A stretch of 64,000 nt of DNA from Gemmatimonadetes bacterium 13_1_20CM_4_69_16 (GTDB taxonomy: Bacteria; Gemmatimonadota; Gemmatimonadetes; Gemmatimonadales; GWC2-71-9): positions 15,430 to 79,429 of the forward strand of contig MNIR01000058.1 of the NCBI GenBank assembly GCA_001919865.1, given 5' to 3'. The notes below the pieces were generated by a model. That model made no database searches. It had not been told where the DNA came from and was given only the letters and a program-made list of their open reading frames with translations. The position numbers and the translations under genes were made by a program. This document shows positions 3,848 to 64,000 of the stretch, in pieces. Position 1 is the stretch's first letter, and each line of letters begins with the position of its first letter.

Positions 3848-4731
<884 letters not shown>

Positions 4732-56511: not shown

Positions 56512-58148
56512 TGCGGCGGCTGCCGGCGATCGCGCTCGCGGCGCTGGCGCTCGGGGCCTGCGAGCGGGGGAGATCCGGACCGCCGGACCTGATCCTCACC
56601 GGGGGCCGGATCTTTACGGCGGACTCGGAGCGCCCCTGGGCCGAAGCGCTCGCCCTGCGCGGTGACCGCATCGTGGCCGTCGGCAGCACGGACTCGGTGC
56701 GCCGTCTGGCCGGCCCGCGCACCCGAGCGCTGGAGCTGGGCGGCCGCACCGTCATCCCCGGCTTAAACGACGCGCACGCGCATCCCGGGCCCGAGCTACG
56801 GGGCACCAGAATCGCGGCAGCCACGGGGGACCCCGCTCTCCTCGAGGTGGTGCGCGCGCTCGCCGCGGCGAGTCGAGTTCGCCCGCGCGGGACGTGGCTA
56901 CTCGCGACGGTGGGCGAGCGCGTGCTCGACGACCCCCGCACCAACCGCTTCTTTCTGGACAGCGTCGTTCCCGACCATCCCGTGGTGCTCGAGAGCTGGT
57001 CGGGCCACATGGCGATCCTCAATAGCGCGACGCTGGGGACGCTCGGGATCGGCCACGACACGCCGGATCCGCCGGGCGGCCGCTACGGACGGGCGCCGGG
57101 ATCGGGGGTGCTGGACGGACGCCTGACAGAGTACGCGTGGTGGAACGCGCGCCGGCGACTCTCTAGCAGCGTCCCCGACAGCGCGAGCCGCGCCGACCTG
57201 CGACGCTATGCCGATGCGGCCGCGCGCTTCGGCATCACCACGGTGCAGGACATGAATAGCGCACTCACGACGGCGCGCGCCGTGGCACTGCTGCGCACCG
57301 CTGACGTGGCGATCCGGTGGCGCGTGATCCGCTTCCCCATGACCCGGCCCGGGGGCCGGGACGTCGCCGACGCGCGCGCCGCCGGCCCGAGCCCGGGCGG
57401 GATGCTCAGGGTCTCGGGGGTCAAGTACATCCTCGACGGCACGCCCGTCGAGCGGGGTGCCGCGATGCGCCGCCCCTACGCCGACCGGCCCGGGTGGTCC
57501 GGCGAGGTCGACTTCCCTCCCGAGACGCTGCAGGCGATCATCCGCGAGACGCTCGCCTCGCGGGAGCAGTTGCTGGTGCACGCCGTGGGAGACAGCGCGA
57601 TCGCCGTGCTGCTGCGCCTGCTGTCCGGCGCCGCGCCGGAATCGACGTGGCACGCGCTGCGGCCGCGGATCGAGCACGGTGACTTCCTCACCGCCGACCT
57701 GCTCCCATCGGCCCGCCGCCTCGGAGTCGTGGTGGTCCAGAACCCCGCACACTTCACGATCCCCGACTTGATCCGGCGCCGCTACGGGCCAGGCCTGGCG
57801 GGCGCAGCGCAGCCGCTGCGCTCGCTCCTCACCGCCGGAGTCCCGATCGCCCTCGGCTCCGATGGTCCGATGAACCCGTACCTCAACCTCATGTTCGCGG
57901 TGACGCACCCCGTCAACCCTGCGGAGGCGCTCACCCGCGAGCAGGCAGTTCTCGCCTACACGCGCGGCTCGGCATACGCCGAGTTCGCCGAGCGGGAGAA
58001 GGGTATGCTCACGCCCGGCATGCTGGCCGACCTCGCCGTCTTGTCGCAGGACATTTTTGCGGTTCCGCTGGGGGAGCTCTCGAAGACCGAGAGCGTGCTG
58101 ACGTTGGTGGGGGGGAAGGTGGCGTACGACGCGGGCGTGGTGAAATAA
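56511..58148 (+). CDS. YtcJ-like amidohydrolase (lipoprotein)
   Basis: Lipobox LGAC, PGLNDAHAH, HAVGD, RIEH, GSD. Confidence 0.88.
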   Translation: MRRLPAIALAALALGACERGRSGPPDLILTGGRIFTADSERPWAEALALRGDRIVAVGSTDSVRRLAGPRTRALELGGRTVIPGLNDAHAHPGPELRGTRIAAATGDPALLEVVRALAAASRVRPRGTWLLATVGERVLDDPRTNRFFLDSVVPDHPVVLESWSGHMAILNSATLGTLGIGHDTPDPPGGRYGRAPGSGVLDGRLTEYAWWNARRRLSSSVPDSASRADLRRYADAAARFGITTVQDMNSALTTARAVALLRTADVAIRWRVIRFPMTRPGGRDVADARAAGPSPGGMLRVSGVKYILDGTPVERGAAMRRPYADRPGWSGEVDFPPETLQAIIRETLASREQLLVHAVGDSAIAVLLRLLSGAAPESTWHALRPRIEHGDFLTADLLPSARRLGVVVVQNPAHFTIPDLIRRRYGPGLAGAAQPLRSLLTAGVPIALGSDGPMNPYLNLMFAVTHPVNPAEALTREQAVLAYTRGSAYAEFAEREKGMLTPGMLADLAVLSQDIFAVPLGELSKTESVLTLVGGKVAYDAGVVK

Positions 58149-58152
58149 GGCG

Positions 58153-60228
58153 TCAGGGAAACGACGGTCGCCTGCGCTCGTCGCCGGCCGCAAACCGGTT
58201 CCGCTGCAGCCACACGACCGCGACGAGCAGCAGCACAACGAGCAGGGCCTGGAGCGACAGCGACTGCAGCGTGGGATAGATCCCGAGCACCGGTATGCGC
58301 GGGGCCCACTCGACGACGGTCGTCTTCACCAGCCCCGCTTCCTGCAAGTCGGCGATGCCCTTTCCGGCGAACACGAAGGCCATGTAGTAGAGCATCGCGC
58401 TGGTGATCGCGAAGAACGGCTTGAGGGGAAGCTTCAAACCGAAGCGATTGATGCCGAGGTAGACCAGCACGAGCGCCGCCGCTCCCACAAGCAGCCCGCC
58501 CACCACCGCCGTCGCGCCCCCCCCCCCGCCGCCGGCTCCACCCACTCCCGGACCGGCTGACGTGAGCAGCGCCTTGTAGAAGAGGATCGTCTCGAATCCT
58601 TCGCGGTAGACCGCGAGGAACGCCACGGACGCGAGCGCGAGACCCGACCCCGCGGACAGCGCGTCTTCCATGCGGCTCTTCACGTAGGCGTTCCACTTGG
58701 CGGCCTCGATCTTCGAGACGAGCCAGTAGCTCACGTAGAACAACACCGCCGTCGCGAGCAGCATGGTCACGCCCTCGAGCGTCTCACGCTGACCCGGCGT
58801 GATCTGGAACAGCACCTCGATCACCACCGCGGTCACCACGCTGGCCGCGACGGCGGCCCACGCGCCGCGCGCGACGTGCCGGCGTCGCTCGACCGCTCCC
58901 GCCTTCGCGAGGAAGGTCATCAGCGCCGCCACGATCAGGATCGCCTCGAACCCTTCCCGCAGCAGCAAGACGAACGACTCCATGAACAGGTTGGCCGCCG
59001 AGCCCTGATCCGCGACCAGCCGCTCGGCGCGCTCGAGCCCCGACAGGAGCCGCGCGTGGATCGCGTCCAGTTCTTCGCGCCCCGCCCCACCGGTCGCACG
59101 CGCGCGCAACGCGGCGAACGCATCCTCGAGCTCGCTCGCCAGGCCCGCGTTGCGCGCACGCACCGCCGTCTCCACTTGCTCGAAGGTGAGGTAGGCGTCG
59201 AAGGCGAGCGGCCCGGACCGAAGCGCCACGGCCGAATCGACCTGACGCCGCACCGCCTCGAACGTCGCCGCGGCCGGTGACGTCGCCTCGTGCCGCTGCC
59301 GCTCCGCCGTCGGCAGCACCCGCAGGAAGGCGACCAGCTTCGCCGCACTCGCCCGATCGAGTGCCTGCGCGAACCCCGGCATCGGCGTGCCGGGACGCCC
59401 GTGCAGGATCAGCTCGATGAGCTCGTCGTCCGAGAACCGGCCCTGTATCGCGAGGTCGCGCAACGCCGGCGGCTGTACGGAGAGCGACGCGGCGAGCGGC
59501 CCGTCGCCGCCGCCGGTGGCGCCGTGGCAGGAAGCGCAGTGCGCCGCGTACAGCCCCTCCCCCTCTCGCTCCTCACCACTCCCCGCGCGCAGCGTGGCGA
59601 CGTAGGTCGCCACCGCCCAGCGGTCTTCCGGCGCCAGCGTTTCCTCGAACTGGGGCATGGCGGTGCCGGCGACCCCGATCGTGACCTTGCGGTAGACGTC
59701 CACGGGTGACACGGGGCTCATCAAGCGCGGGTCGGCGAGACTCGCGGGCCGCGGCCCCTGGAGCTGCGGCGCCTTCGGGCCGTCGCCTCCGCCCGCCGGG
59801 CCGTGACACGCGAGGCACTGCTCACGATAGACGGCCGCTCCGCGCGCCAGGGACGGCGGCTGGACCGGGAATGGGTCGATCGCGCCGCCCGTGGCGGCGG
59901 CGATGCGTCCCACGAGGGCGTTCGCTCGGGCGGTGACGGAATCGGGTGGGGCGGCGCGGTCGACCATCGCCCGCAGGGCGCCGAGCTCCGTGTCGGCGAC
60001 TGCGCGCACTCGGACGGGCAACGCCGGAGCGTCGAGCCGCGCCTGATCGAGAAACTGGCGCGCCTCGTCCACTTCGGCGGGGGCCGTGACCCGCCCGCCC
60101 CGCGGCACCACGCCGGTGGCGTACTCCTTGGCGGCAAGCGATGCGGCGGCGACGATGCGTCGCGCCACCGCCAGGGAGTCCGTCCCCTGCCCGTGGGCTT
60201 CGGCCACGGCACATGCGCTCAACAGCAA
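58153..60228 (-). CDS. Di-heme cytochrome c - FTR1 iron permease fusion
   Basis: CLACH and CASCH; two REGFE motifs; frame open upstream to a CTG at 60267. Confidence 0.9.
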   Translation of the reverse strand: MLLSACAVAEAHGQGTDSLAVARRIVAAASLAAKEYATGVVPRGGRVTAPAEVDEARQFLDQARLDAPALPVRVRAVADTELGALRAMVDRAAPPDSVTARANALVGRIAAATGGAIDPFPVQPPSLARGAAVYREQCLACHGPAGGGDGPKAPQLQGPRPASLADPRLMSPVSPVDVYRKVTIGVAGTAMPQFEETLAPEDRWAVATYVATLRAGSGEEREGEGLYAAHCASCHGATGGGDGPLAASLSVQPPALRDLAIQGRFSDDELIELILHGRPGTPMPGFAQALDRASAAKLVAFLRVLPTAERQRHEATSPAAATFEAVRRQVDSAVALRSGPLAFDAYLTFEQVETAVRARNAGLASELEDAFAALRARATGGAGREELDAIHARLLSGLERAERLVADQGSAANLFMESFVLLLREGFEAILIVAALMTFLAKAGAVERRRHVARGAWAAVAASVVTAVVIEVLFQITPGQRETLEGVTMLLATAVLFYVSYWLVSKIEAAKWNAYVKSRMEDALSAGSGLALASVAFLAVYREGFETILFYKALLTSAGPGVGGAGGGGGGATAVVGGLLVGAAALVLVYLGINRFGLKLPLKPFFAITSAMLYYMAFVFAGKGIADLQEAGLVKTTVVEWAPRIPVLGIYPTLQSLSLQALLVVLLLVAVVWLQRNRFAAGDERRRPSFP

Positions 60229-60252
60229 GCTGACAAACAGCTTACGACAGAT

Positions 60253-60267
60253 GGGGATGATTCTCAG
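60253..60267 (-). promoter_or_regulatory. Putative Fur-type iron box
   Basis: Minus strand TGAGAATCATCCCCA resembles TGAGAATCATTCTCA; located at the 5' end of an iron permease gene. Confidence 0.45.
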
Positions 60268-60606
60268 TCAGGAGGTGCCAAATACTAGAGTAAAACTGTC
60301 GGGAATTCAAGCACGCTCGCCCAGGTCTGGTAATTCTCCAGGTTCACTTCTAACAGCCGGGCCGGAGCCATCAAGGCGACCAAGTCTTCAACCCTCCACC
60401 TAGAAACGTCCTTCGGGCGCTTGTTAAACGTTTAACATCCCGAGGCGCGTGGAGAAGGGCACCGCCTTTCGGTGCCGAGCCCTTGCTGTCCGTTACATTG
60501 CTTCGCGCGGCGCTTGAGTTCACGTGACATGGCCCCCAAGTGTAATCTGACTCACACCATTACTGGCGATAACCGCGATGATCAGACACAACCTTGGATC
60601 TTTTAC

Positions 60607-60636
60607 TTGACACCGCGTCGGTATGACTATAAATAT
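60607..60636 (+). promoter_or_regulatory. Sigma70-like promoter
   Basis: TTGACA (60607-60612) followed by AT-rich TATAAATAT (60628-60636). Confidence 0.6.
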
Positions 60637-60637
60637 T

Positions 60638-60709
60638 GCCCTTACTCATCCCCGAAACGGGCGCAAGCCTGCTAGGGTCCCCCCGGGTCACGATCCGGGG
60701 GTTTTTATT
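60638..60709 (+). ncRNA. Candidate short structured RNA/leader upstream of the NYN gene
   Basis: CGGGC-GCAA-GCCUG GNRA hairpin within a CCC/GGG stem, then a terminator hairpin. Confidence 0.5.
60680..60709 (+). terminator. Intrinsic terminator upstream of the NYN gene
   Basis: CCCCCGGGT-CACG-ATCCGGGGG followed by TTTTTATT. Confidence 0.75.
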
Positions 60710-60723
60710 CCAGGGGCCCACTA

Positions 60724-61353
60724 GTGCCCAACCGCGTCTGCTTCCTCGTCGACGGCTTCAATGTCTACCACTCAATCATCGAGGCCCTAAAGATCAATCC
60801 GACCGCCTCGATGAAGTGGTTGGATTTCCAGGCTTTCTGCAGTTCTTTCCTCCCGTTGATCAGCCGAGACGCGACCCTGGAGAAGGTATTCTACTTCTCG
60901 GCATCGGCGGATTTTCGACCCGACAAGGCTGCCCGACACGCAATCCTTGTTGCCGCCCTTCGCTCAACCGGGGTTGCGGTCCAGCTCGGACGATTCAAGG
61001 AAAAGGACATCCGGTGCCCTAAGTGCAAGACCAACTTCACGCGTCATGAGGAGAAGGAAACCGATGTGGCCGTAGCCGTTAAGCTCCTCGAGCTACTTGC
61101 CGTGAATGCGTGCGAAACCGTCGTGCTTCTAACAGGCGACACAGACTTAGCACCTGCGATTCGCACGGCCAAGACGCTGTACCCCGATAAGCGGATCTGG
61201 GTGATCTTTCCATACAGCCGCCACAACGCAGAACTGAAGGCACTCGCTCATGGGACGATCCAGGTCAAAGCCAAGAGGTATGTCGCCAATCAGCTTCCCA
61301 ATCCCGTCAAGGTGTCCGACACCGAGTTGATCTGGAAGCCTACTGGCTGGTAA
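60724..61353 (+). CDS. NYN domain (LabA/DUF88, PIN-fold) nuclease
   Basis: FLVDGFNVYH, EEKETDV, LTGDTDLAP; CPKC insert; atypical codon usage. Confidence 0.9.
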   Translation: MPNRVCFLVDGFNVYHSIIEALKINPTASMKWLDFQAFCSSFLPLISRDATLEKVFYFSASADFRPDKAARHAILVAALRSTGVAVQLGRFKEKDIRCPKCKTNFTRHEEKETDVAVAVKLLELLAVNACETVVLLTGDTDLAPAIRTAKTLYPDKRIWVIFPYSRHNAELKALAHGTIQVKAKRYVANQLPNPVKVSDTELIWKPTGW

Positions 61354-61407
61354 CTCGTTACCTCGCTACCGGCCGGATAGTAACCGCTGAAACGGGCCAC
61401 CACTCGC

Positions 61408-61794
61408 CTAGTCACGCTCCAGCACGGCGACTGCGATGGCGGCCAAGTGGGTGTGGGACAGCGAAAGCAGCACGCGCCGTACGCCCAGCTCGCGCGCCCG
61501 CCGCGTGGCCACGCCCGAGAGACTCACGTCCGGCCGCCCGTCCGGGGCCCGGATGACCTCGATCTCTCGCCACCCGATCCCGCGCGCGGCGGCACTCCCC
61601 TGGAGCGCCTTGTAGACGGCTTCCTTCGCGGCGAGCCGCACCGCCACGTGGGTCGCGACGTCGGGGCGGCTCTCGCAATACGCCCGCTCGGCCGGTGTCA
61701 GCAGTCGCTCGAGCACGCGCGCGCCTTTGTCTTTGAGGATCGCGCTCACGCGCGGGACCTCCACGAGATCAACACCCACGCCGATCGCGCTCAC
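61408..61794 (-). CDS. acpS: Holo-ACP synthase
   Basis: GVGVDLVE, AAKEAVYKA, LSLSH. Confidence 0.92.
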   Translation of the reverse strand: MSAIGVGVDLVEVPRVSAILKDKGARVLERLLTPAERAYCESRPDVATHVAVRLAAKEAVYKALQGSAAARGIGWREIEVIRAPDGRPDVSLSGVATRRARELGVRRVLLSLSHTHLAAIAVAVLERD

Positions 61795-62528
61795 TAGAAG
61801 CCCAGCCGGGCGGCGAGCCAGGCGGGGGCGGCGACGTACCCACCCAGCACCAGCCCCAGCCACACCAGCAGCGCGCCGAGCGGCGCCCACAGGACCAGCA
61901 CGGGCCAGAGTGGGGGACGCCAGCGCTCGACCGCCTCGATCTCTGGAGCCCAGCGCCGCTCTTCCTCCGCCGCCACCGCTTCGAGGGCGAGCCAGGCCGC
62001 TTCGAGCCGGCGCGCGGCGCTGCGCAACGCCTCCTGCCACTCGCCGTGCGCTGTTTTGTCGAGGACCGTGGCGTCCCGCACCCGTGCGGCGACGGCGTCG
62101 AGCGCATCGAGCGCCGCGATGAACGGCTCTCCCCCCGACGCGAGCCGTGCCGCGATGGCGCGCTTCTCGGGCGTGGAGAGCAGCCGGCGGCGCCAGCCGC
62201 GGCGCGGCATCCGCCCGCGACGGGCGGTCCGCTCGATCCGGCCGTCCAGCGCCTCGGTCACCCGATCGGCGACGCGCCGCACTGCCTGCTCCCACGCGGC
62301 GAACCACGCCCGCCGGCTGACCGCCTCGAGCACCCGCTCGCGGTCCTCGCGCAGCGCCGCCGCTCGCGCCTCGCCCCCGAGCTCGAGCGCCCGCGTCGCG
62401 AGCGCCTCACGGATGTCGTCCAGCGGCACCCACGGCTCGGCGACGCGCCGGGGGACGAGCACGCGGCCCAGCGAGGGGGCGAGCTCGGGCACGCGCAACG
62501 GCATCGGGATCTTGACCGCGGCACTCAC
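61794..62528 (-). CDS. Hypothetical helical protein with C-terminal TM anchor
   Basis: Translationally coupled between the CYTH gene and acpS. Confidence 0.7.
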   Translation of the reverse strand: MSAAVKIPMPLRVPELAPSLGRVLVPRRVAEPWVPLDDIREALATRALELGGEARAAALREDRERVLEAVSRRAWFAAWEQAVRRVADRVTEALDGRIERTARRGRMPRRGWRRRLLSTPEKRAIAARLASGGEPFIAALDALDAVAARVRDATVLDKTAHGEWQEALRSAARRLEAAWLALEAVAAEEERRWAPEIEAVERWRPPLWPVLVLWAPLGALLVWLGLVLGGYVAAPAWLAARLGF

Positions 62529-63106
62529 GAGCGGCGCTCCGCGAGGCGGGCGCTTCGGCCCGTGCGCGTCTCGTACATTTGCACGAAGTGCGGCAGCGAC
62601 TGGGGGAGGAAGCGGTCCCGCGGCAATCCGGTGGCGCGGATGGCCTGCTCGATGGCAGCCGGCGCGCCCTCCACCTCCAGCAACACGTCCATCGCGGGAT
62701 ACCACTCGAGCCGCAACATCGCCTCTCCCAACCGATAGACCTCGACCGTGCGATCGATTCGCAGCGTGACAGCGAACCCCGCCCGTTGGAGGATCGCGAG
62801 TGCGGCGTCCGGATCGGTCAGGCGGGTTTCCACCTCGCTGCGATGACGGTAGTCGCCGCGCTGCGACTGCGGTCCCTTCCAGCCGAGCATGCCGAACGCG
62901 GCCGCCCCGTCGGCCGGCCGAAAGATGCGCAACCGCAGGACCTCGTCCCGCGCGCCGAACTCACCATCCCGATCGAACCGCCGATCCAGCATGACTCCGC
63001 GGAACTCGAGCCGCGCGCCGGCGCGCTCCAGCTGCTGACGCACGCCGTCGGGGTGGTCCACCTTCGCCTTGACTTCGAGTTCGTCCGACGGCGCAGAGTG
63101 GCTCAA
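62525..63106 (-). CDS. CYTH domain protein (class IV adenylate cyclase-like)
   Basis: ELEVKA, LRLR, KGP, LEVEG. Confidence 0.85.
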   Translation of the reverse strand: MSHSAPSDELEVKAKVDHPDGVRQQLERAGARLEFRGVMLDRRFDRDGEFGARDEVLRLRIFRPADGAAAFGMLGWKGPQSQRGDYRHRSEVETRLTDPDAALAILQRAGFAVTLRIDRTVEVYRLGEAMLRLEWYPAMDVLLEVEGAPAAIEQAIRATGLPRDRFLPQSLPHFVQMYETRTGRSARLAERRS

Positions 63107-63828
63107 GCGAGCAGCGCGTCGAGCACCGCTGCCGTGTCGGCGAGCGTCTCGAACACTCGGTCGGCGCCGGCGGCGCGCAGCGTAGCGACGTCGTAGAAGC
63201 CGGTCGCCACGGCCACCGCACGCGCGCCGATCGGGCGGCCACAGGCCACGTCTTCCGGCGTGTCACCCACGATCACGACGTCCTTCCCGACGAAGCCGCC
63301 CCCTCCCCCGCCCCCTCCCCCATCCCCGGTGAGCGCCGCGGCGCGCCGCGCCGCCACCGCCGGAAGATCGGCGCGGCGGTGCGAGTCCGATCCATAGGCC
63401 CCGACGCGGAAGCGGGCGGGGTCGAGCCCCGCCGAACGGAGCTTGAGCGCGGCCCCCGCCTCGAGGTTCCCGGTCAACAGGCCCACGAGCGCTCGCCCCG
63501 CTTGCTCGTGCGGCTCGAGCGCCGCGAGCAGCTGCGCGACGCCGCCCATCAGGCGCGTGGCCTGGGCGGGCTTGGCGAGCTCGGCCGCGAGCAGGCCGAG
63601 ATAGCGGCGGCAGACCGCCTGAATGCGCACTTCGTCCTCCGCGTCGCGGTGACCCGCGAGCGTCAGCAGCTCGCGCACGATTTGCGGGTCGGTCTTGCCG
63701 TCGAAGCGGTAGGTCCCGATCGGCCCCGCCGTGCCCGCCTCAGCCAGCAGCGCGCCATGGATCGCCCGCCGGCCCGCGCCGTCGGTCCACAGCAGAGTGC
63801 CGTCAATGTCGAAGAGGACGAGCTTCAT
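63103..63828 (-). CDS. HAD family hydrolase
   Basis: LVLFDIDGTL, GKTD, LTGN, VGDTPEDV. Confidence 0.9.
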   Translation of the reverse strand: MKLVLFDIDGTLLWTDGAGRRAIHGALLAEAGTAGPIGTYRFDGKTDPQIVRELLTLAGHRDAEDEVRIQAVCRRYLGLLAAELAKPAQATRLMGGVAQLLAALEPHEQAGRALVGLLTGNLEAGAALKLRSAGLDPARFRVGAYGSDSHRRADLPAVAARRAAALTGDGGGGGGGGGFVGKDVVIVGDTPEDVACGRPIGARAVAVATGFYDVATLRAAGADRVFETLADTAAVLDALLA

Positions 63829-64000
63829 GCCGGAAAGATAGCTACCCCTCTCTGCCTCTACCCATCCAACCGCTCTACTCGTCGCACCGTCACCAGCATT
63901 TCCCGCAGCCGCCGCGCCCCCGGCTCGTCGTCCCACAAGGCGTCCGACGCGACGCCGCCCCGGGACAGGGCCGAGTGCACGATGGCCCCCGCTCCCCCCC

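Follow-up and report, generated by a model that had tools for sequence, protein, structure and literature searches.

We report that the window, the 64,000-nucleotide stretch of DNA analysed here, carries a module in which a small structured RNA element lies directly in front of a NYN-domain gene. This RNA-NYN module is real and apparently undescribed. [quoted passage not shown]

Table 1. Features of the RNA-NYN module and of the insertion that carries it, in window coordinates.
Feature	Position	Strand	Basis
Predicted sigma-70-type promoter	60607..60635	+	Read from sequence
NYN-associated small RNA unit, ~65 nt (order 5' to 3': tail, P1, linker, P2, U tract)	60643..60709	+	R1 covariance model, 57.8 bits, E 3e-14
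Conserved unpaired 5' tail, UCAUCC	60646..60651	+	Column conservation in A4/A5
Hairpin P1	60651..60677	+	Folding; covariation across loci
Hairpin P2 and U tract, intrinsic-terminator-like	60680..60709	+	Terminator scan
Shine-Dalgarno-like AGGGG, 7 nt before the start codon	60712..60716	+	Read from sequence
NYN-domain gene, 209 aa, GTG start, HEC-09 family	60724..61353	+	Pfam, PADLOC, AlphaFold2
1.08-kb lower-GC insertion carrying the module	60325..61406		Absent from congeners; GC

The covariance model R1, built from 36 leaders, recognizes a single copy of the RNA in the window and in the whole genome, at 60643-60709, and homology to non-identical relatives starts exactly at 60643-60646. The outer helix of P1 consists of three pairs (60651-53 with 60675-77) followed by an internal loop, and its inner helix of five pairs (60658-62 with 60667-71) is capped by GCAA. 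P2 has a G+C-rich stem of 9-10 bp (60680-60701) with the loop CACG; the U tract (TTTTT, 60702-60706) lies directly 3' of the stem and is followed by AUU. Our analysis confirmed the GCAA hairpin at 60658-60671 and the terminator with U tract at 60680-60709 that the preliminary description had pointed out, as well as the 14 nt that separate the end of the RNA (60709) from the GTG start codon (60724). The UCAUCC tail did not pair in any fold computed, and a search by eye, which was not quantified, revealed no convincing partner for it within P2, within the linker or early in the NYN coding sequence. When folded as a single sequence, the window copy was weakly better than its shuffles (z -1.71 and z -2.25). 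That the element at 60643-60709 is more than a chance structure rests on comparison across loci and not on this single fold.

We fetched 80 genome loci and 80 metagenome loci, 160 in total, none of the metagenome loci having been used in building R1. RNAalifold applied to an unfitted MAFFT alignment of the 36 leaders predicted two hairpins in which 14 of the 17 pairs were changed on both sides. In that same alignment, 93.4% of cells could pair compared to 29-59% when the partners were slid, and none of 500 shuffles reached the observed values. Model-fitted sets behaved alike, as 94.5% of cells paired in the genome set (78 distinct rows) and 94.3% in the metagenome set (73 distinct rows), while the slid controls over all sets gave 26-59%. 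All eight model pairs of P1 were changed on both sides across loci, and this hairpin is free in both sequence and loop length. For P2, 99.5-100% of cells paired and 6-7 of the 9 pairs were changed on both sides, with the top of the stem conserved as GGGUU(A/G)CGA(U/C)CC. Few unpaired bases are conserved, and they lie in the tail and the linker. In A4/A5, the tail columns read U in 96-97%, C in 97-99%, A in 86-90%, U in 73-88% and C in 97-100%; both the tail and the top of P2 are kept although the proteins are only 41-52% identical. G-U pairs are frequent, one P2 position being G-U in 39 of 78 rows. On the reverse strand, R1 scored at most 24 bits, over part of the model and mostly over P2. We also considered whether the top of P2 could be a T-loop and dropped the idea, the 4-nt loop being UNCG-like, closed by U-A and devoid of the T-loop consensus.

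Rfam 15 holds no such family. No Rfam family exceeded its threshold on the window, where the best match, anti-hemB, scored 22.8 bits (threshold 49.5), and nothing above threshold covered the leader at 20 other loci. The sub-threshold matches to anti-hemB and NsiR1 were set aside, as they reflect the terminator only. In the literature searched, no report links NYN genes to an RNA motif, and the terms NYN, DUF88 and LabA are absent from the main text of PMC5737381.

The predicted promoter is composed of a -35 box TTGACA at 60607-60612 and either TATAAA (60628-60633, 15-nt spacer) or TAAATA (60630-60635, 17-nt spacer) as the -10 box. The TTGACA and AT-rich -10 noted earlier are therefore present, though a consensus scan of this region of the window called no promoter because the -10 box is imperfect. 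At the equivalent site, 117 of 145 homologous loci have a promoter with 9 or more of 12 positions matching, compared to 33 of 725 control segments (4.6%). At the loci with such a match, the -10 box mostly ends 4-8 nt before position 1 of the model. Furthermore, the promoter and the U tract are conserved in one orientation across loci.

Translation signals are arranged in two ways. A median of 12 nt (n = 149) separates the end of the motif from the start codon, and of the 94 loci where this spacer exceeds 8 nt, 43 carry a Shine-Dalgarno-like tetramer in it. At 54 of 148 loci, the gap is 8 nt or shorter and there is no Shine-Dalgarno sequence outside P2; in 53 of these 54, the sole Shine-Dalgarno-like tetramer lies within the 3' arm of P2, at a median distance of 12 nt to the start codon. 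Therefore, formation of the hairpin could also block translation. The preliminary description had further proposed that GCCCTT (60638-43) can pair with AGGGGC (60712-17), a pairing that would mask the probable ribosome-binding site. Both segments are present and complementary, but the pairing is not conserved: the longest complementary run of this type averaged 4.21 nt against 4.17 in shuffles (n = 95), and the GCCCTT arm is located at the predicted start of transcription or upstream of it.

The protein encoded downstream matches the Pfam family NYN (PF01936) over residues 6-175 with 39 bits against a cut-off of 24.2, and no other Pfam family was found on it. It also matches PADLOC HEC-09 (PDLC04163) over positions 2-202 of 203 (E 7.3e-47, 157.6 bits) and is the only HEC-09 copy in the genome. 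The AlphaFold2 model (pLDDT 94.6) has its best PDB fold matches in the LabA-like structure 2qip and the MARF1 NYN domains 5yaa and 6fdl (Foldseek E 3e-8 to 2e-5), with which it shares the same fold. We know of no dedicated RNA partner for these solved NYN relatives. As stated earlier, the acidic motifs are intact, D10, D114, D139 and D141 being invariant in 22 sequences. The model and the alignment point to a PIN-like/NYN fold with conserved acidic metal-binding residues in a putative ribonuclease. In contrast to 2qip and MARF1, the protein has an extra beta-hairpin (approximately residues 85-111) with invariant R90, K92, K94, C98 and C101 and a nearly invariant H108.

The RNA and the NYN gene are tightly linked. 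R1 matched 77 of the 80 genome loci, 76 of them directly upstream of the gene and one inverted, and 77 of the 80 metagenome loci. The covarying structure whose presence upstream of homologous NYN genes had been put forward as a test was thus clearly found, at 154 of 160 loci, with compensatory changes in both helices. Four of the six misses had no upstream DNA and the other two had variant two-hairpin leaders recognized by eye. Among the 154 positive loci, the RNA was in leader position in 152. A search starting from the RNA in 151 Gemmatimonadota genomes yielded seven matches of at least 47 bits; their neighbours were an intact NYN gene in four cases, a truncated NYN gene in one, an IS insertion in one and no NYN gene in one. 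In a search of 151 genomes of the class of G182, all three strong matches lay beside NYN. The motif occurred once per genome in the five genomes checked. The order promoter, RNA, terminator and NYN is conserved across many phyla, and the fetched loci include Gemmatimonadota, Chloroflexota, Omnitrophota, Desulfobacterota, Acidobacteriota and Bacteroidota. Two genomes, G071 and G085, each contain two different RNA-NYN pairs or remnants of pairs, in which distinct cognate RNA variants go with distinct NYN subclades within one genome. Weak R1 matches of 26-31 bits (L099, L100, L186 and L187) were treated as terminator look-alikes; the first three have no NYN gene beside them.

The module sits in an insertion between the start of an FTR1-cytochrome c gene and the stop of acpS. 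In all five congeneric genomes examined, the sequence corresponding to 59300-60324 of the window is directly adjacent to that of 61405/61407-62300. The GC content is 0.54-0.59 inside the insertion against 0.70-0.78 in the flanks, in agreement with the lower-GC islet between housekeeping genes described previously. Homology with relatives covers exactly the RNA and the ORF, and neither boundary of the insertion (60325, 61406) falls at the motif. Judged from these sequence comparisons, the cassette is mobile and probably horizontally acquired. Among neighbouring ORFs, about 20 of 139 are restriction-modification, toxin-antitoxin or mobile-element genes, and some relatives are embedded in such systems, L081 having a methylase on one side and a Res subunit on the other. 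In the window, immediately downstream of the NYN stop codon at 61378-61397, we observed a 75% look-alike of the first 20 nt of the motif. No tRNA or tmRNA was found in 58000-64000. The insertion contains no conserved protein-coding partner, which bears out the earlier statement that no protein antitoxin is nearby. Three small ORFs, 60472-60675 (+), 60371-60523 (-) and 60560-60721 (-), were rejected as protein antitoxins because they lie wholly or mostly in 60325-60642, which relatives do not share; the first of them had no Pfam match.

Type III systems (ToxIN, CptIN and TenpIN) are composed of a promoter, a non-coding RNA, an intrinsic terminator and an endoribonuclease-type gene expressed by read-through. 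The same order of parts is predicted from the sequence of the window module. Furthermore, type III cassettes are small, autonomous, mobile and often near defence genes, features also seen across the RNA-NYN loci. In type III systems, the RNA binds and neutralizes the toxin and is processed by it; for the RNA-NYN module, such processing and binding are hypothetical. The layout and the covarying RNA of the type III-like module suggested in the preliminary description were conserved, but none of the known type III families includes this module, as the fold of its putative toxin differs: the window protein has a NYN (PIN-like) fold whereas type III toxins belong to the ToxN/AbiQ (or CptN/TenpN) family. 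The RNA also differs, as one two-hairpin unit of about 65 nt stands in place of arrays of short repeats. The window copy is a single unit without a repeat array, and tandem arrays resembling those of type III, of two or three units, occur only in a distant NYN subclade.

Structured 5' leaders that limit the expression of their own RNase gene are also found at rne and rnc. They share with the window module a structured leader before a ribonuclease gene. However, the rne and rnc leaders act through cleavage or stability of the mRNA; release of a discrete small RNA at a strong intrinsic terminator is not part of their mode of action. They are not known to be mobile cassettes or to have stand-alone or arrayed copies.

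AbiF provides a closer parallel on the RNA side. [quoted passage not shown] Like the window module, AbiF combines a structured non-coding RNA with a stand-alone RNase-like toxin directly downstream. In contrast, the AbiF protein is a HEPN (Abi_2) protein whereas the window protein is a NYN protein, and the window RNA is unrelated to the abiF motif, which remained below the Rfam threshold on the window and on 20 other loci.

HEC-09 itself was introduced as a candidate defence gene embedded in Hma (Payne et al., bioRxiv 10.1101/2024.01.29.577857). According to that preprint, the HEC-09 representative failed to protect against the phages used in its one published assay, toxicity upon IPTG induction was seen only for HEC-03 and HEC-04, and HEC-09 was likened to the MARF1 NYN domain, as here. 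Its passages on HEC-09 present a single protein gene and mention no RNA, whereas the window gene has an RNA element upstream. Furthermore, the window HEC-09 gene is not part of a Hma, BREX or restriction-modification system, the kind of setting that led to the candidate being proposed, and is a solitary insertion between housekeeping genes.

In our preferred explanation, the sigma-70-type promoter would start transcription at about 60641-60646, and P2 would end most transcripts, giving rise to an abundant RNA of about 65 nt made of the UCAUCC tail, P1 and P2. NYN mRNA would be produced only by read-through of P2, as there is no room for a second promoter, and this dependence on read-through would keep the RNA in excess over the protein. 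A drop in RNA supply or degradation of the RNA, for instance when a phage shuts off host transcription, would then free NYN to cleave RNA. What the comparisons show is the conservation and covariation of the RNA, its strict linkage to NYN, the constant layout, the stand-alone or arrayed copies and the mobility of the cassette; the ends of the transcript, its termination, binding of the RNA to the protein, inhibition, toxicity and any part in defence are inferred. Metatranscriptomes left a few traces of the locus. Parts of the stretch were covered at a depth of 2-3.5 in two RNA-library runs, a depth that cannot show a small RNA or tell where it ends and how abundant it is, and parts without cover carry no information. 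One contig (60667-60817) bridges P2 into NYN, so read-through molecules may exist. Another (60440-60590) lies upstream of the promoter, and DNA carry-over or other transcription is therefore possible.

The main competitor, possible but clearly less probable than our preferred explanation, is a purely cis-acting leader: a transcription attenuator, either constitutive or under protein control and maybe bound or cleaved by NYN for autoregulation, that throttles a potentially harmful RNase and yields the short RNA as a by-product without function in trans. The leader position at 152 of the 154 positive loci would fit such an attenuator too. The 12-nt median gap, hence the dependence of NYN on read-through, and the potential block of translation at the short-gap loci also speak for it. 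Conversely, RNAalifold predicted only P1 and P2, and no alternative pairing, such as a conserved antiterminator, was seen in a search that was not exhaustive; in addition, the freely varying sequence of P1 is unlike that of a ligand aptamer. Unusual arrangements argue against a mere leader as well. At L036, the promoter and the RNA are inverted and located just 3' of an intact NYN gene. In this position the RNA cannot serve as a leader, but R1 still scores it at 67.5 bits, and that genome has no other copy. L176 keeps a second, orphan copy of the promoter and RNA with no NYN gene after it; the RNA units of the two copies are identical and their promoters differ at a few bases, so that the element forms direct repeats flanking NYN and two small ORFs. 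In the distant NYN subclade, three tandem units are found in L208, L209 and L210 and two in L223 and L233, with the UCAUCC tail recurring between units and the U tract present on the last unit only; the three-unit arrays are hard to explain as attenuators. Tandem Repeats Finder reported no array in L210, to which it is blind because the units share fold and tail and not stem sequence. Taken together, inverted, orphan and arrayed copies favour a discrete trans-acting RNA partner over a mere leader. Such arrangements are few, and the inverted and orphan copies, found at one locus each, could reflect recent rearrangement or assembly error.

We consider it unlikely that the RNA is instead a positive cofactor (a scaffold, a specificity subunit or a guide-like element acting through UCAUCC) and that the active nuclease is a ribonucleoprotein. 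The strict RNA-NYN linkage, the conserved unpaired tail and the pairing of distinct RNA variants with distinct NYN subclades in G071 and G085 are all compatible with this alternative. However, an invariant tail of 6 nt that is the same in all phyla leaves no programmable targeting, a terminator-limited layout with RNA in excess is a hallmark of antidote-type RNAs, and the RNA is still there at loci whose NYN gene is truncated, interrupted by an IS or missing.

A DNA-level element, for example a recombination or attachment site whose hairpins reflect a DNA palindrome, is very improbable. The mobility of the cassette, the direct repeats at L176 and the look-alike at 61378-61397 would suit it, but the frequent G-U pairs are mismatches on the other strand and in DNA, the reverse strand reaches no more than a partial R1 match, the promoter and U tract keep one orientation, and the insertion boundaries are away from the motif. 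Finally, the chance that an ordinary promoter happens to precede a terminator-like hairpin with no specific role is negligible: the single-sequence fold is marginal and the region holds two terminator-like sites where 1.4 are expected, but it is already refuted by a motif kept, with compensatory changes, at some 150 loci across many phyla.

We tentatively extend our preferred explanation to all these loci in a joint reading, somewhat short of an even chance, in which HEC-09-type NYN proteins and the two-hairpin RNA make up a new pan-bacterial type III-like family with a PIN-like/NYN toxin. NYN would recognize the UCAUCC tail and the top of P2, cut multi-unit transcripts at the tails between units, and remain bound and inhibited by the processed unit, and cognate RNA-NYN specificity types would coexist in genomes. 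The built-in terminator and antidote RNA could also explain why the HEC-09 clone (with about 150 bp upstream) was neither toxic nor protective.

If the RNA is an antidote or partner, RNA-antitoxin systems would reach a second, unrelated RNase superfamily (NYN/PIN-like) and extend to many phyla. The element would contribute a family of at least about 150 members, missing from Rfam 15, to the known RNAs, and the candidate defence gene HEC-09 would be worth re-testing with and without its leader RNA.

Small enterobacterial plasmids were found to carry more distant NYN relatives, one of them with a related variant leader. The natural plasmids bearing related NYN genes measure 3.5-4.3 kb and, together with the array-bearing relatives, offer simple experimental entry points.

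The first clue to the RNA came from database homologues of NYN, whose N-terminal 'extensions' proved to be the translated conserved leader. Our homologue set comprised 80 loci from species genomes, and at least 551 relatives were found among 600 candidate stretches. The upstream DNA of nearly all 80 loci contains, in order, a promoter, UCAUCC, a hairpin of free sequence (P1), a C-rich linker, a second hairpin (P2) and a U run, and the top of the second hairpin reads GGGUU(A/G)CGA(U/C)CC across the set.

RNAalifold applied to A2, an unfitted MAFFT alignment of 36 leaders, returned two hairpins in which 14 of 17 pairs have changed on both sides. In this alignment 93.4% of the cells pair, compared with 29-59% when partners were slid, and 0 of 500 shuffles reached the observed values. 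R1, a covariance model built from A2, located the motif (E < 1e-5) at 77 of the 80 genome loci, missing L040, where the upstream DNA is just 9 nt long, as well as L065 and L090, whose leaders are, by eye, two-hairpin variants. Of 80 metagenome loci that had played no part in model building, R1 recognized the motif in 77; the three missed (L123, L128 and L170) all begin within the NYN gene. The covarying structure that the preliminary description suggested looking for upstream of homologous NYN genes is thus present. Model-fitted alignments gave 94.5% and 94.3% of cells pairing; because such alignments lean towards the model, the unfitted figure is reported too. G-U pairs are frequent on the plus strand and reverse-strand R1 scores did not exceed 24 bits, indicating that the plus strand is the one read as RNA. 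A search of Rfam 15 with the window and 20 other loci revealed no family matching the RNA, and a literature search found no RNA motif linked to NYN. The protein belongs to a known family (NYN; HEC-09 candidate); the RNA family and its obligate association with NYN seem not to have been described.

In the window, the module occupies an islet with a GC content of 0.54-0.59 (from about 60200 to 61400) in surroundings of 0.70-0.78. The lower-GC islet between housekeeping genes, the GCAA hairpin and the strong terminator with its U tract, all pointed out previously, were confirmed, the terminator also being called by a strict consensus scan. The promoter proposed at the same time stood in part: TTGACA and an AT-rich -10 are present, but the consensus scan called no promoter at the module. 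The single-sequence fold of the window copy was marginally better than those of shuffles (z -1.71 and -2.25). Given the empty promoter scan and the marginal fold, the window copy is unconvincing by itself.

Features of the RNA-NYN module and its borders in the window
Feature	Position	Strand	Remarks
FTR1-cytochrome c gene	58153-60228	minus	start borders the islet
-35 TTGACA	60607-12		read from the sequence
-10, AT-rich			TATAAA with 15-nt spacing or TAAATA with 17-nt spacing
P1	60658-71		GCAA-loop hairpin, plus three outer pairs 60651-53/60675-77
P2	60680-60701		G+C-rich hairpin of 9-10 bp, then UUUUU
SD-like AGGGG	60712-16		
NYN	60724-61353	plus	GTG start at 60724
acpS	61408-61797		stop borders the islet on the other side

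The NYN gene encodes a 209-aa NYN-domain protein (Pfam NYN, 39 bits; cut-off 24.2) that matches the PADLOC HEC-09 profile over its full length (E 7e-47). An AlphaFold2 model was confident (pLDDT 94.6), and among solved structures it most resembled 2qip, a LabA-like protein, and the MARF1 NYN domains of mouse and human. An alignment of 22 sequences bore out the intact acidic motifs noted earlier, as D10, D114, D139 and D141 are invariant. So are R90, K92, K94, C98 and C101 of a basic, cysteine-bearing beta-hairpin insert, in which H108 is nearly so. The HEC preprint (bioRxiv 10.1101/2024.01.29.577857) proposed HEC-09 as a candidate for defence on the grounds that it lies within Hma systems. The one HEC-09 representative tested there, cloned behind a T5/lac promoter together with about 150 bp of its upstream sequence, gave no protection against any phage tried, and IPTG toxicity was noted for HEC-03 and HEC-04 only.

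A search of 151 Gemmatimonadota genomes with the RNA alone gave seven matches of at least 47 bits. Four lie directly before an intact NYN gene (G000, G053, G142 and G061); in G071 the RNA precedes an NYN gene cut down to its last ~97 residues, in G067 it precedes an IS-type transposase inserted immediately after the RNA, and in G085 it has no adjoining NYN. In 151 genomes from the class to which G182 belongs, all three strong matches were at NYN genes. The motif was single-copy in 5 of 5 genomes checked. G071 and G085 each carry a second, more distant NYN gene (at L255 and L257, respectively) with its own variant two-hairpin leader; therefore, different cognate pairs can coexist, which suggests that several RNA-NYN specificity types exist. 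The canonical RNA of these two genomes is orphan or decayed.

Just upstream of the RNA, 117 of 145 loci have a sigma-70-type promoter that agrees with the consensus in at least 9 of 12 positions, compared with 33 of 725 control segments. In loci with such a promoter, the -10 usually stops 4-8 nt short of model position 1, which places the UCAUCC tail at the extreme 5' end of the predicted RNA. The median distance from motif end to start codon is 12 nt (n=149, one value being an artefact and one locus lacking a callable start), leaving no space for a second promoter, so that NYN would be transcribed by read-through of P2. At 54 of 148 loci the gap is at most 8 nt and an SD-like tetramer is absent outside P2; in 53 of these 54 such a tetramer is found inside the P2 3' arm, separated from the start by a median of 12 nt, so that folding of P2 may in addition occlude the ribosome-binding site. 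Of the 94 loci whose spacer is longer, 43 possess a separate SD-like tetramer, and so does the window. The pairing of GCCCTT with AGGGGC proposed for the window was not found conserved across loci. Two metatranscriptome runs contained read-length contigs of the stretch at depths of 2-3.5, one spanning P2 into NYN (60667-60817) and one upstream of the promoter (60440-60590), all of which may be DNA carry-over; libraries of this type would miss a 65-nt RNA regardless.

That the RNA is purely a cis-acting attenuator is a serious rival explanation, albeit one we consider somewhat less likely than a partner role. Across proteins that are only 41-52% identical, the unpaired tail and the P2 top are kept, which a terminator alone would not require. 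Furthermore, at one locus, L036 (3654-3775, minus), the full unit of promoter, RNA and terminator stands inverted on the 3' side of an intact NYN, directly adjoining its stop codon; this RNA scores 67.5 bits and is the sole copy in its genome (G185). At another single locus, L176, promoter and RNA occur twice (2380-2500 and 4510-4640, 2.1 kb apart), the RNA unit being identical and the promoter differing at a few bases; no start codon remains after the second copy, where there is no gene. The two copies flank NYN and two small membrane-like ORFs. More distant NYN relatives on viral contigs (35-39% identity) have repeated tail-P1-P2 units, three in L208 and L209/L210 and two in L223 and L233, with the U tract on the last unit only; the stems differ from unit to unit, while the tail and P2 loop are retained. 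L208 folds into six successive hairpins (z -8.7). The triple units lie in tandem upstream of NYN on IMG/VR contigs (L210, 2813-2971; L208, 2810-2974), with the P2 loop CUGC/UUGC. NYN genes with as little as ~25-30% identity are still preceded by variant leaders built on the same plan, including one on a 3.5-kb Serratia plasmid; E. coli records of the same length are also among the matches. Because of the inversion, the extra copy, the arrays, the conserved tail and P2 top, and the variant leaders of distant relatives, we think, as far as sequence comparison can tell, that the RNA is a partner of NYN and not only its leader.

[quoted passage not shown] The RNA-NYN module can be likened to a type III or AbiF-type module in its predicted mode of action. 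The type III-like module of the preliminary description holds for layout and arrangements but not for membership; the module belongs to neither the type III nor the AbiF group, since its putative toxin has another fold, its RNA is unrelated to theirs and only one unit is present in the window. We infer that NYN may be toxic, that the RNA may be bound by it and processed, and that the module may serve in defence.

Between the window and its non-identical relatives, homology extends from 60643-46 to the NYN stop codon, and in one relative, L104, on to 61398. The segments 59300-60324 and 61405/7-62300 abut in 5 of 5 congeners, identifying 60325-61406 as an insertion. In a neighbour survey covering 139 of 233 computed ORFs, those of the genome loci, about 20 were restriction-modification, toxin-antitoxin or mobile-element genes, and the remainder were housekeeping genes or had no Pfam match. 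In L081 (1-4562) the module has a DNA methylase gene on one side and a Res-type restriction subunit on the other, and is thus embedded in a restriction-modification system. NYN relatives also occur in 291 plasmid records (206 from Klebsiella, mostly small), 3 phage records and 55 IMG/VR contigs. Two of the small plasmids, L188 (Klebsiella, 4.2 kb) and L189 (Serratia, 3.5 kb), are of ColE1 type, and their NYN genes (27-30% identity) are divergent from a helix-turn-helix gene. The Serratia leader begins CAUCAC-UA-P1-CGCGAGG, resembling the variant leaders of L006 and L007; that of Klebsiella has just a terminator-like hairpin, 25 nt before the start.

The stretch of ~320 bp that opens the insertion and precedes the module (60325-60642) is common to no relative; within it lie a perfect palindrome of 14 nt (GTTAAACGTTTAAC, 60423-60436) and a hairpin of 7 bp (60458-60476). 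Just past the NYN stop, 20 nt (61378-61397) match the opening 20 nt of the RNA motif (60643-60662) at 75% identity; they may be left over from a second RNA copy or be due to chance. The FTR1-cytochrome c gene, whose promoter region adjoins the insertion, encodes a 691-aa product with two cytochrome c domains fused to an FTR1 iron permease.
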